Of a stretch of DNA of 64,000 nt, positions 2,926-41,218 are shown in pieces. Source of the stretch: an uncultured Candidatus Saccharibacteria bacterium (GTDB lineage: Bacteria > Patescibacteriota > Minisyncoccia > Phycocordibacterales > UBA9973); assembly GCA_964496425.1 (NCBI GenBank), contig CAZBZO010000002.1:66450-130449 (forward strand). Reading direction: 5' to 3'. A program made the position numbers and the translations under genes. Within the stretch, counting starts at the first letter, position 1, and each line of letters starts with the position of its first letter. The notes under the pieces were generated by a model. The model saw only the letters and a list, made by a program, of their open reading frames with translations. It made no database searches and was not told the origin of the DNA.

Positions 2926-3014
2926 TGCGGAGGAGGGGAGATTCGAACTCCCGATCGAGTTTCCCCGACGCTGGTTTTCGAAACCAGTGCCTTCAACCAC
3001 TCAGCCACTCCTCC
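2926..3014 (-). tRNA. tRNA-Ser (anticodon CGA)
   Basis: Reverse complement folds as a cloverleaf: acceptor GGAGGAG/CTCCTCC, anticodon loop UUCGAAA (CGA), long variable arm, T-loop TTCGAAT, discriminator G, CA present. Confidence 0.85.
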
Positions 3015-3119
3015 CTCATTTCATTCGGTCGTCATGGCTTCGTGCCCTACTCGGGCACTCCCTATAGCATGTTCGCTTTCGCTCACATCAGCTATTCCTT
3101 CGCTTGCGCTTCGGATCAG

Positions 3120-3147
3120 ACAGAATCTAAAGCAGTTTAGATTCTGT
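3120..3147. promoter_or_regulatory. 12-bp-stem hairpin (acagaatctaaa-gcag-tttagattctgt)
   Basis: Perfect inverted repeat upstream (in minus-strand sense) of tRNA-Ser. It is immediately followed by a 12-nt copy of the tRNA-Ser 5' end (agccactcctcc, 3148-3159). Confidence 0.4.
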
Positions 3148-3221
3148 AGCCACTCCTCCTTGTATGAATATCTGTCGATACTAGCACTTTTATTAAAAAA
3201 CTGGAATGTTATACTAGGCAT

Positions 3222-4631: not shown

Positions 4632-5561
4632 TTATTCTTTTGTATTGTGAAGCCAGAGGTAGATGTCTTCTAGTGCACGCACTGCATCGCCTGCGGCAAT
4701 GTTGTTTTGATGATAGAGGACATCAGTCACGTCTCCGGCTGCCCATACGCCGAGTACGCTCGTTTTTTGAGTTCGAGGGTCAATAACGATAGATCCGACA
4801 GGATTAAGATCAAGAAAGCCTTTGGCAAAAGAAGAATTTGGGATTTGGCCGATTTCTACGAAAATTCCGGTCCCAGTTAGCTTTTCTTCCTGGCCGGTAG
4901 TGGTATGGCGAATAGTCATACCACTTACAAATTTTTCACCAGAGATGTTTAGAAGTTCAATATCAGTAATCGCCTTGAATTTCGGATCTTTTTTTGTTTG
5001 GGCGACGGTGATTTCATCAGCACGAAAAGTGTTACTGCGGTTTAGGAGCGTGACGCTTTTACAATAGGCGAGGAGCTGCGCTGCAGTTTCAAATGCTGCA
5101 TTGCCTCCGCCGACGACAATCACATCTTGATCACTAAAAAGCGGACCGTCACAAGAGGCACAATAGGTGAGGCCTTTGTTTTCAAATTCTGCGGCACCAG
5201 GGATATCAAGTGCACGACGCTTGGAGCCAGAAGCAATCAAGACAGCTCGCGACGATATTGATTCGCCAGAATCAAGGGTGACAGATAAATTACCAGCAGA
5301 TCCTGCTAGTGCGGTCGTTGTGACACTTTCTTTAACTTCTAGAATATCTCCTTGGTATTCCAAGACATGGGATTTGAGATTTTGTGCGAGTGTAGCACCT
5401 TCGATATGAGGAGTACCGATCCAGTTTTGAATGTCAGTAGACACGACAGATTGGCCACCAAACTCACCTGTTACCAAAAGGGTTTTTAGGCGTTTACGGG
5501 CAGCATATACAGCTGCTGCAGAGCCAGCTGGGCCGCCACCAATAATGATGAGATCGTACAT
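4632..5561 (-). CDS. trxB: thioredoxin-disulfide reductase
   Basis: GGGPAGSAA FAD motif, redox-active CASCDG, second dinucleotide fold VVGGGNAA, and GDVTD near the C-terminus. Confidence 0.9.
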   Translation of the reverse strand: MYDLIIIGGGPAGSAAAVYAARKRLKTLLVTGEFGGQSVVSTDIQNWIGTPHIEGATLAQNLKSHVLEYQGDILEVKESVTTTALAGSAGNLSVTLDSGESISSRAVLIASGSKRRALDIPGAAEFENKGLTYCASCDGPLFSDQDVIVVGGGNAAFETAAQLLAYCKSVTLLNRSNTFRADEITVAQTKKDPKFKAITDIELLNISGEKFVSGMTIRHTTTGQEEKLTGTGIFVEIGQIPNSSFAKGFLDLNPVGSIVIDPRTQKTSVLGVWAAGDVTDVLYHQNNIAAGDAVRALEDIYLWLHNTKE

Positions 5562-5652
5562 AAAAAGTATTAAGTATTAGATATAAAGTATTAAGAATAA
5601 ATACACTCGAATTTCGAGCTCATACATTATACACGATACTTTCTACTTGATA

Positions 5653-8896: not shown

Positions 8897-10822
8897 TCAA
8901 AAAAGATCTTCGGGGTTAATTTCAACGGCATAATTTTGCCCAGCAGTCTCGATCGCCGAAAGAAGTTTTGGGTCACGTTCTCCTTTGTGGCGAAGCCCGG
9001 GTGTCGACCAACGGCTTCCATGCACTCGTACAAGCGCATGGAAGCCAACGGCGCGTCCCTTCCGCGCACGTCCTTCAATGATACTTATTTTTTCGCCTTC
9101 AAAAATTTGCATAAGGCGATTTTTTTCTAGATTTTGCGCTGAGGGTTTTCCGCGGAAAGAGAGCTTAATAAGAACGACAAATGGGGGATAGCGTAACCGT
9201 TCTCGAAGCGTTAGTTCTTCTTGATACCATTGCCGTAGATTGCCACTGTTTTTTACGTATAAAATAGGATCATTCGGATTGCGTGTTTGAATAAAAATTC
9301 TCCGTTCTGTGATCGATCGGAGCATGACGAGGAGCTCTAAAATTCGCTCATTGATCCGGTAGCTTGCGATATTAAAAAGGGAATCAAATGATATTACTGC
9401 AGTTGTATCAACACTTTGATTAAGGTAAAAAAGGGCCATTTCAGTGCCAAGGAGTATGCCTCCTTCTGCGCGCTCAAATTGTTTCATAACCTTTTGCGCG
9501 GCGCTTGCGGTACGTACCACTTCGCGATCAATGCGAAAAATTGGGATATGCGGGAAATCTTTTTTTAGTTCATTAAAAACATATTCAATACCTATGCCAA
9601 GCGGTACAAGATTCCAGCTCTGGCACACGGTACATGTACGCGTCGCGTCGAAGTCATGTTGGCAACGGTTACAGGTGTAGATACGTACTCCACTTCGCTC
9701 GTAAAGCACCAGAGGAGTTTGGCACGTTGGGCATGTCACAAGCGTACCGCAGTCGCGGCAGATGGTGGACGTGGCCAATCCCGTACGGAGTGTGAAAAGA
9801 AATATCTTCTTTTTCGACTCATGAGCTTCTTCGATCGCTTCTCGTACTTGGGGTGTAATACTGGAAAACTTTTTTTTAGCAACTGGTGCATTTTGGCTTG
9901 GGTCGATAATAATTTCTTCGGTTGTATGGGACATCCGAAAGACAGGCGCACTTACTTCGCCGATTTCCCTTGAATCAAACTTATACATTGTTTCAGCTCG
10001 TAATAATGTGTCAGCAATAATAAATCTCAGTTTCTGCTCGTGGGCAAAAATTTCAGCAAATATTCGGAAGTCGATAGTGCTTCCGTGCATACTTCTATAT
10101 GCACCCGAACTTTCATGTTCTACGACAATGGTACCGAGATCGAAGCGGGGTATGGAAAGATAGGGTACCGTAGCGATAATAAGGACTGGATGTGTTTCAG
10201 CTGTCGTGCGATTGTATGCTTCGAGTAACTCTTTTTTTGTCCGTTCGCTATGAAAAACGAAAGTATATTGTTCAATGCCGCGACCGAGACTCTCGCTAAA
10301 TGTTTTAATATCAGCGACGGTCGGCAAACAAATAAATACTGATTGTTTGCGTGCAAAGGCTTCTCGTATAAACGTCCGGTAATAAGACAAACGATCATCA
10401 AGCGGTGCCTGAAATATAAGTTTCTCTTGTACCGTGTCTCGAGTTTCTAAAGGTTTCTCAATTTGAGTTGCGACAATCAGCTTTTCATACTGTTCCAAGA
10501 AAAGTGTTGGAATGAGTTCACCAAAGACGGCGCTCGGTGCTCCTAAAAAATAGGAGCACGTTTCTTCGCAGGCTTTAAAAAAACTTTCAGGGAAGTGCGC
10601 CATTCCTTTCACTGAAGTAATTTTTCGAAGATTGAACGCCGAATTTTTAATCGTCGCTTTGGCCGCGCGTACTTCGTGGGTGCCAATAACGAGTGCGTGA
10701 TGAATTTTTTTCCGCACAGGTACGGTTACAATCATACCGGGCACTATGTCCTTTGCCGAAAAATATGAAAGTTCCTCAGTTCGGATTTTAGTGGAAAGTG
10801 GCAAAACGGTGACTTCCTTCAT
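8897..10822 (-). CDS. priA: primosomal protein N' (PriA)-like, Walker A absent and DExH box degenerate
   Basis: Classic PriA Cys4-Cys4 zinc-binding region CRDCGT..CPTCQ..CNRCQ..CTVCQ. No GxGKT found. VVEHESS replaces DEEH. Confidence 0.75.
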   Translation of the reverse strand: MKEVTVLPLSTKIRTEELSYFSAKDIVPGMIVTVPVRKKIHHALVIGTHEVRAAKATIKNSAFNLRKITSVKGMAHFPESFFKACEETCSYFLGAPSAVFGELIPTLFLEQYEKLIVATQIEKPLETRDTVQEKLIFQAPLDDRLSYYRTFIREAFARKQSVFICLPTVADIKTFSESLGRGIEQYTFVFHSERTKKELLEAYNRTTAETHPVLIIATVPYLSIPRFDLGTIVVEHESSGAYRSMHGSTIDFRIFAEIFAHEQKLRFIIADTLLRAETMYKFDSREIGEVSAPVFRMSHTTEEIIIDPSQNAPVAKKKFSSITPQVREAIEEAHESKKKIFLFTLRTGLATSTICRDCGTLVTCPTCQTPLVLYERSGVRIYTCNRCQHDFDATRTCTVCQSWNLVPLGIGIEYVFNELKKDFPHIPIFRIDREVVRTASAAQKVMKQFERAEGGILLGTEMALFYLNQSVDTTAVISFDSLFNIASYRINERILELLVMLRSITERRIFIQTRNPNDPILYVKNSGNLRQWYQEELTLRERLRYPPFVVLIKLSFRGKPSAQNLEKNRLMQIFEGEKISIIEGRARKGRAVGFHALVRVHGSRWSTPGLRHKGERDPKLLSAIETAGQNYAVEINPEDLF

Positions 10823-38630: not shown

Positions 38631-38650
38631 TACTTTCAAACTTAGAAAAT

Positions 38651-38675
38651 ACCCTGACATGTGTCAGGGTATTTT
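38651..38675 (+). terminator. intrinsic terminator
   Basis: accctgacatgtgtcagggt hairpin followed by atttt. Confidence 0.55.
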
Positions 38676-38678
38676 CGT

Positions 38679-38707
38679 TTGCGGGGAAAGGCTAATTTTG
38701 TTATAGT
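38679..38707 (+). promoter_or_regulatory. sigma70-like promoter TTGCGG-17-TATAGT upstream of tRNA-Ile
   Basis: Hexamers with 17-nt spacing, about 45 nt before the tRNA 5' end. Confidence 0.4.
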
Positions 38708-38751
38708 AGTGCGAGTTCAAGAAATGGACGCGTTTTGTTGTTTTTAAATAT

Positions 38752-38826
38752 GCGTGTGTAGTTCAGTGGTAGAACGCTGTCCTGATAAGACAGAGGTCGA
38801 AGGTTCGATTCCTTCCACACGCACCA
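38752..38826 (+). tRNA. tRNA-Ile (anticodon GAT), CCA encoded
   Basis: Acceptor GCGTGTG/CACACGC, anticodon loop CTGATAA, T-arm GAAGG-TTCGATT-CCTTC, 3' ACCA. Confidence 0.9.
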
Positions 38827-38937
38827 GCGGGGAGCAGGCAAACTGCTTTGCCTGCGAGAAGGAATCGAAAGACTTTTCGTTCGCTGTGTTAACAGAGCGA
38901 AAAGTACCTGCGACCGTAGGGCGAGATTCCTTCACAC
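38827..38937 (+). ncRNA. unassigned structured element between tRNA-Ile and the atp operon (two strong hairpins plus a long-range GAAGGAATC/GATTCCTTC pairing)
   Basis: GCAGGCAAA-CTGC-TTTGCCTGC 9-bp hairpin and an imperfect hairpin of about 14 bp (CTTTTCG..CGAAAAG). The 3' end GATTCCTTCACAC copies the tRNA-Ile T-arm/acceptor 3' strand. Does not fold as a canonical tRNA. Confidence 0.3.
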
Positions 38938-38944
38938 AAACATT

Positions 38945-39196
38945 ATGGATCTAAAACAAAAACCTTGGTGGCGGGATTCGCTTATGGTATTTGGTAAAGT
39001 GACCACGTGGGTCGCAATACCGATCGTCATGGCTTTGTTTCTCGGGAAATACCTTGACCGTGCTTTTGGTACCGAACCTTGGATATTTCTTGGACTTACT
39101 GGACTCGCATTTTTTGTTTCCATTTTCGGCATTCTCAAAGTTATAAAAGATTATTTAAAAACACTTAAAGACGAAGACACGACCACTCATGCATAA
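38945..39196 (+). CDS. AtpZ/AtpI-like small membrane protein (ATP synthase gene 1 family)
   Basis: 83 aa with two TM helices. LGKYLDRAFGTEPWIFLGLTGLAFF matches the PF09527-type pattern. First gene of the atp operon. Confidence 0.5.
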   Translation: MDLKQKPWWRDSLMVFGKVTTWVAIPIVMALFLGKYLDRAFGTEPWIFLGLTGLAFFVSIFGILKVIKDYLKTLKDEDTTTHA

Positions 39197-40118
39197 CGAA
39201 GAAGAAATTGTTCATACGACAGAAGCCAGTGAAATTGCTCACGCTGAAGGTGATGCAGCACATGGTGAAATTGCTCATGAAGTCACCATCTTTGCAGAGC
39301 CGATCACGCATATCGGCAACTTTACTGTTACCAACGCACTCCTCACCAGCTGGATCGCTGTCGGCATCATCATCATACTTTGTGTGGCAGTGCGCTTAAG
39401 CATCCGGAAGGTGCCTGGCAAGCTTCAAACATTTTTTGAAGTTATCATCGAACAAACACTCAACCTCACCGATCAGATCACCGGCAACCGCGCCAAATCC
39501 CTCAAAGTCTTTCCCATCGCGATGGCGGTGTTTTTCTTTATCCTCATCAACAACTGGCTCGGTATTTTGCCGCTTGGAGCATTTGGCCTGGTGGCAGAAC
39601 ATGGCGGTGAGAGCGCTTTTTTGCCATTTTTACGAAGTGGTACAGCAGATATCAATACCACGCTCGCCCTTGCAGTCATGGCAGTCATCGGCTCAAATGT
39701 CTTTGGAATCCTTTCGATCGGCGCCTGGAAAACATTTAACAAATATGTTAATCTAAAGGCGCTCGGACGCATCTTTACTGATGTGCGCAAGGATCCGAGT
39801 GTTTTAATGGTGGCGCCGGTCATGTTCTTTGTCGGTATCCTTGAACTCGTCGGAGAAGCCGCCAAAGTCGCCTCATTGTCGTTTCGTCTTTTCGGAAACG
39901 TCTTCGCTGGAGAAGTGCTTTTGGCCTCGATGGCGGCACTCCTAGCGTACGTACTCCCAATACCATTTCTCGGACTTGAAATATTTGTGGGACTGATTCA
40001 GGCGCTCATATTTTCAATGCTCACTCTGGTCTACTTTGCGATTGCATCGGAGGATCATGAGGCGCACGAGGAAGAGCATCATGAAAAACACGAGCCTGCA
40101 TTACATCAGACCGCGTAA
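39189..40118 (+). CDS. atpB: F0F1 ATP synthase subunit a
   Basis: Polytopic protein with the conserved Arg in LSFRLFGN, in operon context. Confidence 0.85.
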   Translation: MHNEEEIVHTTEASEIAHAEGDAAHGEIAHEVTIFAEPITHIGNFTVTNALLTSWIAVGIIIILCVAVRLSIRKVPGKLQTFFEVIIEQTLNLTDQITGNRAKSLKVFPIAMAVFFFILINNWLGILPLGAFGLVAEHGGESAFLPFLRSGTADINTTLALAVMAVIGSNVFGILSIGAWKTFNKYVNLKALGRIFTDVRKDPSVLMVAPVMFFVGILELVGEAAKVASLSFRLFGNVFAGEVLLASMAALLAYVLPIPFLGLEIFVGLIQALIFSMLTLVYFAIASEDHEAHEEEHHEKHEPALHQTA

Positions 40119-40975: not shown

Positions 40976-41218
40976 ATGTCAAAAGGATTTAAAATTATTG
41001 GAATAATTTTAGGACTTATTATTTTAATGTTGTTGCCAATTTTCCCTGTTAAAGTAAGTTCATCCATTGAACATCCTTGCGCAAAAGAAGAGACAAATAG
41101 TGCATCATTTTTACCATCTATGCCTACGTGTTATGACTCTGAAACCCTTTTTGTAAGCCCTTTAATCCATATTATTAAACCCGGGTACCAAAAGTACTAC
41201 TTCGATTTCAGTAAATAA
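40976..41218 (+). CDS. small single-pass membrane Cys protein inserted between atpF and atpH
   Basis: 80 aa, TM, then EHPCAKEE...MPTCYDSE. AT-rich. 1-4 nt spacing to neighbours. Confidence 0.35.
   Translation: MSKGFKIIGIILGLIILMLLPIFPVKVSSSIEHPCAKEETNSASFLPSMPTCYDSETLFVSPLIHIIKPGYQKYYFDFSK

Follow-up and report, generated by a model that had tools for sequence, protein, structure and literature searches.

We favour the view that the 111-nt structured element directly 3' of the tRNA-Ile(GAU) gene (38827-38937), within the 64,000-nt stretch of DNA analysed here (the window), is a tRNA-like element (TLE) that arose from a partial duplication of this adjacent tRNA gene, was subsequently remodelled, and serves as a processing or folding element in a tRNA-atp co-transcript. 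To this reading as a whole we assign a probability of about 0.6. The tRNA-derived origin is well supported by sequence comparison, and the function in the co-transcript is plausible by analogy. Judged from its relatives, the window copy belongs to a family that has not been described before and is itself partly decayed, and it is the family, together with a nested architecture seen in related genomes, that makes up the interesting part.

The tRNA-Ile(GAU) gene, with an encoded CCA, was placed at 38752-38826 by both ARAGORN and the Rfam tRNA model (77.6 bits); this gene and all other features of the locus lie on the + strand. The first open reading frame of the atp operon starts with an ATG at 38945, 7 nt past the element, and the initial annotation, which had described a tRNA-Ile followed by a 111-nt structured element immediately upstream of the atp operon, was correct on both points. 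This frame (38945-39196) encodes an 83-aa AtpI/AtpZ-like protein of the PF09527 family, and Pfam ATPase_gene1 is recorded for an identical 83-aa protein in loci L094/L095 and also for its orthologues. Next comes atpB (F0 subunit a, 39189-40118), which we used as the anchor for gathering orthologous loci; the nearest database relatives of the window AtpB are 86-87% identical, and the protein assigns the DNA to a CPR/Patescibacteria bacterium of the Paceibacteria ("Ca. Nomurabacteria"). Upstream, the gene of an RRM RNA-binding protein is closed by a terminator-like hairpin with a 15-bp perfect stem and a T-run (38645-38680; arms 38645-38659 and 38662-38676, 100% complementary, then TTTTCGTTT), and relatives have equivalent terminator-like hairpins at the same position upstream of tRNA-Ile.

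A probable sigma-70-type promoter for the tRNA-Ile(-atp) transcript was read from the sequence at 38679-38707 (TTGCGG, 17-nt spacer, TATAGT). It was not called in the consensus scan because its -35 hexamer matches only 3/6 bases; a layout of the type TTGC.., 17 nt, TATAGT is kept in relatives, 5' of tRNA-Ile or of its outer 5' half (see below). The tRNA leader (38708-38751) may hold a weakly recognisable, decayed remnant of such an upstream 5' half (GCGAGTTCA, 38711-38719), and an AAATGG motif (38722-38727) resembles, by eye only, the spacer called X in relatives. Profile HMMs of the X and Y spacers did not detect a remnant at 38708-38751, where the local-alignment score was at background level. 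Between tRNA-Ile and the ATG (38827-38944), scans for intrinsic terminators and consensus promoters found none. As there is no T-run after any of the element's three hairpins, an intrinsic terminator or attenuator was rejected. The element is not an assembly artefact, since two independent assemblies of other samples carry the identical sequence; lineage-specific versions are also present in many projects.

The element is predicted to fold into a three-way junction just upstream of the first atp frame, with a minimum free energy (MFE) of -49.4 kcal/mol (z = -5.2, none of 200 shuffles being equally stable). The initial annotation had listed a perfect 9-bp hairpin, a second long hairpin and a long-range pairing, and all three are present. 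At its 5' end, GCGGGGA (38827-38833) occupies, by alignment with the orthologous loci L118 and L120, the position of a decayed acceptor 5' strand; it no longer pairs with the 3' end of the element, and its counterparts are GAGTGTG in L118 and GTGTGTG in L120. Then follows hp1, the perfect hairpin (38834-38855), with GCAGGCAAA (38834-38842) and TTTGCCTGC (38847-38855) as arms on either side of CTGC; in terms of tRNA anatomy it evidently stands in for the D arm, the anticodon arm and the variable loop. The segment 38858-38869 consists of a T-stem 5' strand (GAAGG) and an 'anti-T-loop' (AATCGAA), and it provides the 5' strand of the closing helix P1, formed by GAAGGAATC (38858-38866) and GATTCCTTC (38925-38933). 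Within the expanded T loop the MFE fold places two hairpins, the long imperfect hp2 (38872-38905; arms 38872-38882 and 38895-38905) and hp3, CCTGC-GACC-GTAGG (38907-38920).

The 3' strand of P1 belongs to a copy of tRNA-Ile positions 56-69, GATTCCTTC-ACAC (38925-38937), made up of the 3' part of the T loop, the 3' strand of the T stem and a truncated acceptor 3' strand. The direct repeat of the tRNA's T-loop/T-stem 3' strand (38807-38815 and 38925-38933, with 98 nt between) extends through ACAC minus one C, so that 13/14 positions are matched, in agreement with the original observation that the distal strand plus ACAC repeats the tRNA 3' end. The observed local-alignment score was reached in 6 of 2000 shuffles of the element only and in 12 of 2000 when 300 nt downstream were considered, and the segment is homologous to complete 3' copies in L081, L118 and L120.

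The searches assigned the element to no tRNA gene and no Rfam family. ARAGORN and the Rfam tRNA model called only 38752-38826, with 38827-38944 empty even at E = 10, and ARAGORN with introns allowed found only the ordinary tRNA-Ile in the window. A canonical tRNA gene (no cloverleaf recognised in 38827-38944) and an intron-containing tRNA gene (no exon halves found in the window by the ARAGORN intron option) were both rejected on these grounds, which bears out the earlier statement that the element does not fold as a tRNA. When the window, the nested loci and the L118 element were compared with Rfam at gathering and permissive thresholds, only tRNA reached threshold, and nothing besides tRNA was found for the L118 element or the nested locus L047. 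The best non-tRNA match overlapping the element, to YrlA, scored 15.7 bits (gathering score 69) over a span that includes the genuine T arm. Curated RNA families (riboswitch, T-box, group I intron, YrlA, tmRNA) were set aside for want of an Rfam match, a group I intron also because the 'intron' of the nested loci is itself a tRNA. A blastn comparison of the element with 80 related loci gave no similarity.

Among about 100 related Paceibacteria ("Ca. Nomurabacteria") loci we found a clear orthologue of the element between tRNA-Ile and the ATG in three, which represent two further lineages, L118/L119 and L120. Their AtpB proteins are 72% identical to that of the window and 82% to each other. The automatic three-sequence structural alignment of the TLEs shifted P1 by one column, and the helices were therefore read by eye. 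From 5' to 3' the orthologues consist of an acceptor 5' strand, an A, hp1, the T-stem 5' strand followed by AATCGGAC, two hairpins, GAGAT.., the T-stem 3' strand, the acceptor 3' strand CACACTC and a discriminator A, to which L120 adds CCA. The acceptor stem is GAGTGTG/CACACTC in L118 (7/7 pairs) and GTGTGTG/CACACTC, with one mismatch, in L120 (6/7, plus ACCA), in both lineages identical or nearly identical to that of the tRNA. L118 has GATGG/CCATC as its T stem, L120 and the window have GAAGG/CCTTC, and each matches the tRNA of its own genome; the T-loop insert is 60-95 nt long in the TLEs. Since these lineages carry orthologues, we place the window element in this small TLE family, as a member in which the acceptor strands have decayed (GCGGGGA ... 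ACAC). Absence of the element from orthologous loci, a prospect raised by the initial annotation, holds for most relatives but not for L118, L119 and L120.

Conservation within the family is uneven. hp1 is identical to the window at 22/22 positions in L118/L119 and at 21/22 in L120, and the approximately 38 nt formed by hp1, the junction and the antisense segment described below vary at only 2-3 positions across lineages whose AtpB is 72% identical; the non-coding DNA around this core cannot be aligned between the same genomes. At the position of hp2 the orthologues have a hairpin of different sequence, and the second inner hairpin, the counterpart of hp3, differs between L118 and L120 through compensatory changes. 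The direct repeat of the tRNA 3' end spans 14 nt in L120 and 18 nt in L118, and because the latter includes 3 nt of the tRNA trailer, the duplication appears to have taken place at the DNA level.

A feature that the initial annotation had not mentioned is a perfect 12-nt reverse complementarity between GAAGGAATCGAA (38858-38869) in the element and TTCGATTCCTTC (38804-38815) in the genuine tRNA, where it covers the T loop and the T-stem 3' strand. The antisense match is perfect in all three lineages, with 12/12 positions in the window, 14/14 in L118 (read from sequence) and 13/13 in L120, and it tracks the T-loop variant, AATCGAA occurring with TTCGATT and AATCGGA with TCCGATT. This covariation, based on one variable position in three lineages, is suggestive. 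By comparison, the 3' strand of the element itself is imperfect in L118 and L120. Taken together with the acceptor 5' strand, the antisense segment is complementary to the last ~20 nt of the tRNA, broken only by hp1. RNAfold favours the swapped tRNA/TLE pairing in L118, and the swapped pairing was also seen in the centroid structure of the window.

The wider context of these elements was apparent from 80 loci gathered around atpB homologues as an unbiased sample. In most of them tRNA-Ile(GAU) lies directly upstream of the small PF09527 frame and atpB, the ATG follows within 0-35 nt, often with a short hairpin and a U-run between, and in several relatives the start codon abuts the tRNA. Extra pieces of tRNA-Ile were present in about 1/6 of the sample, and a metagenome pattern search added nine more such loci. 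In the complete, nested layout an outer 5' half (nt 1-37, ending CCTGATA) is followed by X (45-60 nt), the inner tRNA-Ile, Y (~45 nt) and an outer 3' half starting at A38, and the outer copy is interrupted exactly between A37 and A38 in L047, L005, L086 and L087. In L047 and L092 the outer halves match the inner gene at every aligned position (34-36 nt each). L086 has three layers, the outermost being the most decayed, and other loci keep one side or remnants of the outer copy. The closest relative, L081 (AtpB 86%), has a different form at the element position, where hp1 is absent: its 3' half is 32/32 identical, plus CCA, and its 5' half is broken by a hairpin insertion. Only remnants of partial copies are left in L004 and L090. 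This graded series at the same position, from L047/L092 through L081 and L004/L090 to the 13/14 match of the window, supports a tRNA-derived origin on comparative grounds. With the acceptor and T stems kept in three orthologues, it also bears out the earlier suggestion of a tRNA-derived pseudo-tRNA.

In the nested loci the leader X and the trailer Y form a helix in which 12 of 25 pairs are changed on both sides, a number that none of 500 shuffles reached and that collapsed in slid controls. The helix has conserved U-G pairs, and the constraint therefore acts on the sense RNA. The MFE folds of nested loci are nested double cloverleaves (z = -7.7 and -10). The anticodon of the outer copy is mutated in several lineages (L038, L088, L090 and L093), so it is not maintained as a decoding tRNA. 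The ARAGORN intron option, applied to L047 and L005, gave artefactual hybrids of the outer and inner copies; by direct reading the halves join at 37/38. The states of the outer copy are scattered over the AtpB tree, nest-free sister taxa included, and nest-free genes have flanks similar to the outer ones of nested genes. Such a distribution fits a repeated collapse through recombination between direct repeats, and a gain of nests by transfer is possible. The first 30 nt of the element and the leader had no similarity to the nested-form X/Y spacers that profile HMMs could detect. Because the X/Y profile HMMs found no match in the window, taking the element for a decayed Y would draw on its position only. 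Our literature searches returned no account of CPR bacteria with nested tRNA genes or with tRNA introns, and a tRNA-Ile gene wrapped in its own pieces, as present in these CPR/Paceibacteria, is previously undescribed in the searchable literature.

From these observations we propose that a partial DNA duplication of the tRNA-Ile(GAU) gene was remodelled into the TLE. The element would be read from the conserved promoter (38679-38707) as part of the tRNA-Ile-atp co-transcript, and once RNase P and 3' processing had freed the tRNA, it would remain as the structured 5' leader of the atp mRNA. An ancestral TLE whose acceptor/T minihelix was still intact, like those of L118 and L120, could have provided a second cleavage site of the RNase P/RNase Z type. 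The strands of this minihelix are lost in the window copy, unlike in L118 and L120, and since its acceptor stem is gone this copy would itself be no good RNase P/Z substrate. The antisense segment may pair with the last ~20 nt of the nascent tRNA and could in this way alter folding and processing of the precursor. The conserved tRNA-Ile-atp synteny and the start codons that abut the tRNA make a role in processing or punctuation plausible. Most relatives have nothing at this position, and the element must therefore be dispensable.

The main rival to a functional TLE is a neutral relic, that is, a decaying pseudo-tRNA fragment with hairpins acquired by chance or mutation, which has no present function and persists because it is harmless. 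Several of the above findings would fit: the acceptor stem of the window copy has decayed, the outer halves in relatives are found at every stage of decay or loss with a patchy distribution on the AtpB tree, most loci are empty between the tRNA and the ATG, and GC-rich hairpin insertions are common in decaying halves too (L081, L070 and L089). Neutral decay does not, however, readily account for a ~38-nt hp1/antisense core that is nearly invariant at 72% AtpB identity amid unalignable non-coding DNA, for an antisense segment perfectly complementary to the genuine tRNA in three lineages, or for the compensatory change in the inner hairpin between L118 and L120. We therefore consider it rather unlikely, while still the strongest of the alternatives.

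Less probable in our view is a miniature mobile or mobilisable insertion, one that targets the 3' part of a tRNA, duplicates its target and spreads by recombination between lineages, with hp1 and the tRNA-derived ends as recognition features. Direct repeats of the 3' end of the tRNA flank the element (L118, 18 nt; L120, 14 nt; window, 13/14 nt). If the insert is removed from the L118 or L120 sequence, the usual tRNA-hairpin-ATG layout of the relatives reappears. Its presence does not follow AtpB kinship, as the window and L118 have it and L081, L115 and L116 are without it. In the nested loci, too, X/Y spacer similarity does not correlate with AtpB distance (rho = 0.19), with too few variable sites to call horizontal transfer. 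That hp1 is conserved in sequence and not via compensatory change could also reflect a recent horizontal spread. The window and L118 copies differ greatly in their inner parts, and any transfer of the element would thus not have been recent.

A possibly related element in the window, upstream of tRNA-Ser(CGA) (3015-3159, - strand), can also be read as a sign of mobility. It has an exact 12-nt copy of the tRNA 5' end (3148-3159) and a hairpin with the same tip, AAACTGCTTT, followed by GAAGGAAT, GAGCGAAA and GTAGGGC in the same order as in the Ile element, so that the two share four collinear exact words of 10, 8, 8 and 7 nt. Its folding z-score is -6.6, and 1 of 2000 shuffles reached the score of its tRNA copy. 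We sought it in relatives via the neighbouring proteins, where synteny is not conserved. Against a mobile insertion stand the copy number, as these two are the only copies in the 64-kb window and none was found elsewhere in about 1 Mb of DNA from related loci, and the absence of a transposase or integrase nearby and of terminal inverted repeats. Viral contigs, scanned for the nested pattern, gave nothing, and scanned for hp1 they gave only chance-level matches to its 16-nt palindrome core.

A more far-reaching interpretation is conceivable, which we hold to be quite improbable. The precursor would be bistable, with the antisense 5' part of the element, broken only by hp1, competing with the 5' half of the tRNA, and this strand-exchange switch would couple tRNA maturation to atp expression. 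For the nested relatives the same interpretation would be that a covarying helix, inserted into a second copy at 37/38, carries a complete tRNA at its tip, in up to three layers. RNase P and RNase Z would cut out the inner tRNA, and the outer tRNA would be left in two pieces; the nested form would then be a new bacterial intervening sequence at 37/38. Alternatively, it might be a self-propagating cassette that invades the anticodon loop of tRNA-Ile and carries its own replacement tRNA.

A further alternative, suggested in the initial annotation as an att-like scar, is that an integrative element once entered tRNA-Ile by recombination at the T loop/3' end and afterwards lost nearly all of its DNA through deletion, leaving an attR-type remnant with a displaced tRNA 3' end. 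The 3' copies start in the anticodon loop in the nested form and in the T loop in the TLE, and these are reportedly, as described by Williams in 2002, the usual crossover sublocations of integrases. As in attL/attR pairs, a direct repeat of the 3' part of the tRNA lies beside a complete tRNA gene, and partial copies in this setting are the classical signature of integration (PMC9897764). In the integrative-element cases, however, kilobases of mobile DNA separate the partial tRNA copies (PMC9897764), whereas here the copies are only 45-150 nt apart (98 nt without an ORF in the window), and about 20 loci lack an integrase or other element genes. The 5' halves upstream in relatives are not a product of integration into the 3' part of a tRNA, X and Y of the nested form make a helix that covaries and contains G-U pairs, and the acceptor 5' strand and T-loop antisense of the TLE would be unexpected in an attR. 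We thus regard such a scar as very improbable, and that part of the initial annotation is not upheld. Finally, a riboswitch or another ligand- or protein-sensing leader of the atp operon, with an incidental resemblance to tRNA, could explain a three-way-junction fold with a strong z-score just upstream of the first atp frame, but is scarcely credible and already largely refuted by the comparative data, as no Rfam family was matched even at E = 10, most orthologous atp leaders are without the element, the fold is coupled neither to a terminator nor to sequestration of the start codon, and the tRNA-derived parts are clearly homologous.

Partial tRNA copies are usually dismissed as integration scars. 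The ones described here are short and come without mobile-element genes; the RNA structures that they build around a single tRNA-Ile(GAU) gene are conserved and covary, and this gene is apparently co-transcribed with the ATP synthase operon. If these structures direct processing or folding, they would constitute a bacterial tRNA punctuation built from recycled tRNA parts, and the nested form would provide the first case of a bacterial tRNA gene with something other than a group I intron as the interruption at the canonical intron position 37/38. As the hybrid predictions of the ARAGORN intron option illustrate, tRNA finders and annotation pipelines can mis-handle such loci.

The nearest precedent for the functional TLE that we propose is found in the E. 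coli tyrT/tyrV-rttR repeats (rtT / RttR, tpr). In tyrV-rttR three 178-bp repeats carry the tRNA 3' end, the last overlapping the 3' 19 nt of tyrV. Transcripts of the tRNA extend through this region, from which a small RNA is processed. Common to the two systems is a structured unit that lies 3' of a tRNA gene, in the same orientation, and ends in a repeat of the 3' terminal segment of the tRNA. Unlike the window element, rttR is a tandem array and is followed by a terminator rather than an operon; there is no sequence similarity between the two, and nothing in rttR corresponds to the nested form with 5' and 3' halves seen in the relatives. We know of no acceptor 5' strand, T-loop antisense or hp1-like hairpin in the rttR unit.

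In archaea and eukarya tRNA introns are situated at 37/38, and in split or intron-containing pre-tRNAs the sequences flanking the break pair in a long helix. The nested loci are similar in that the outer copy is broken at 37/38 and the sequences adjoining the break pair in a long helix. They differ in that the hosts are bacteria, a bulge-helix-bulge motif was not recognised in them, and the 'intron' holds a complete tRNA-Ile.

Structures that resemble tRNA are used as processing signals in mitochondrial tRNA punctuation, in MALAT1 mascRNA and in phage T4 species 1 RNA. The enzymes that process them, as well as tRNA tertiary folding, rely on the T loop, and the elements described here differ in that the T loop is replaced by a 60-95-nt insert and that the window copy has lost its acceptor stem. 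The likeness lies in an acceptor/T-arm minihelix that adjoins another transcript and is kept in both L118 and L120, in the latter with an encoded CCA.

In L086 (1430-1800, minus strand), one of the related Paceibacteria loci that were compared with the window, tRNA-Ile is nested in three layers, with decayed halves outermost, an intact pair of halves in the middle and a complete gene innermost. Each layer has its own X and Y spacers, on the 5' and the 3' side respectively, and these are complementary to each other. In decaying outer tRNA halves we found perfect GC-rich hairpins inserted at loop or junction positions, that is after nt 9 and in the D loop, the variable loop and the T loop. Such insertions lie at 9465-9500 and 9683-9701 in L081, the closest relative. 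In L070 and L089 they are upstream of tRNA-Ile, about 45-64 nt from the gene at 5539 and about 53-85 nt from the gene at 1801, respectively, and in L005 they are downstream, about 47-84 nt from the tRNA-Ile that ends at 5580. Hairpins have entered outer halves recurrently, as if this were a regular mode of remodelling. Upstream of the tRNA-Ile in L118 (916-984) there are two 33-nt tandem repeats, 97% identical, each with a piece that resembles the 5' part of tRNA-Ile (GCGTAGTTGTTGGTAAACC), and the same TAGTTGTTGGT variant occurs in what is left of the outer 5' half in L078, L033 and L067.

A structured stretch of 145 nt (3015-3159, minus strand; folding z = -6.6) was also observed in the window itself, upstream of the tRNA-Ser(CGA) gene (2927-3014). 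Its first 12 nt (3148-3159) duplicate the 5' end of tRNA-Ser exactly, and a second piece similar to the tRNA-Ser 5' region is present at 3049-3061. Within the stretch is a 12-bp hairpin whose tip, AAACTGCTTT, is identical to that of the perfect 9-bp hairpin (38834-38855) in the 111-nt element downstream of tRNA-Ile. After the hairpin come GAAGGAAT, GAGCGAAA and GTAGGGC, in an order that matches the Ile element. The stretch may be a paralogue of that element at a different tRNA.

Only 0-4 nt separate tRNA-Ile from the ATG of the first atp ORF in L020, L030, L032, L035, L044, L050 and L071, and also in L059, L022, L003 and L001, and therefore 3' processing of the tRNA would yield an essentially leaderless atp mRNA. 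In nine loci (L002, L033, L036, L043, L067, L069, L080, L118 and L120) a short terminator-like hairpin with a U-run is located 5-12 nt upstream of the atp start codon, between the ATG and the tRNA or tRNA-like element. The space downstream of this hairpin is too small for a promoter, which suggests that atp is expressed by transcripts that start at the tRNA promoter and read through the hairpin. This hairpin is missing from the window.

Further into the operon, L119 carries a small GIY-YIG ORF of the homing-endonuclease type between atpE and atpF (1640-1903); in L118, with an AtpB identical to that of L119, the same position is a 294-nt gap with no gene called. Between atpF and atpH the window has an 80-aa hydrophobic ORF (40976-41218), and ORFs of similar size are called there in the relatives L082, L083 and L094.

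The short-read contigs of L094, L095, L119 and L120 start inside the D/anticodon region of tRNA-Ile. Probably the assembly graph breaks here because all related species within one sample share an identical 38-nt core in this region, and loci of this kind are for that reason under-represented in assemblies. In many loci (e.g. L001, L047, L078, L118 and L120) the T loop of tRNA-Ile reads TCCGATT in place of TTCGATT, so that position 55, almost universally U, is a C; TTCGATT, the usual form, is present in the window and in L081.
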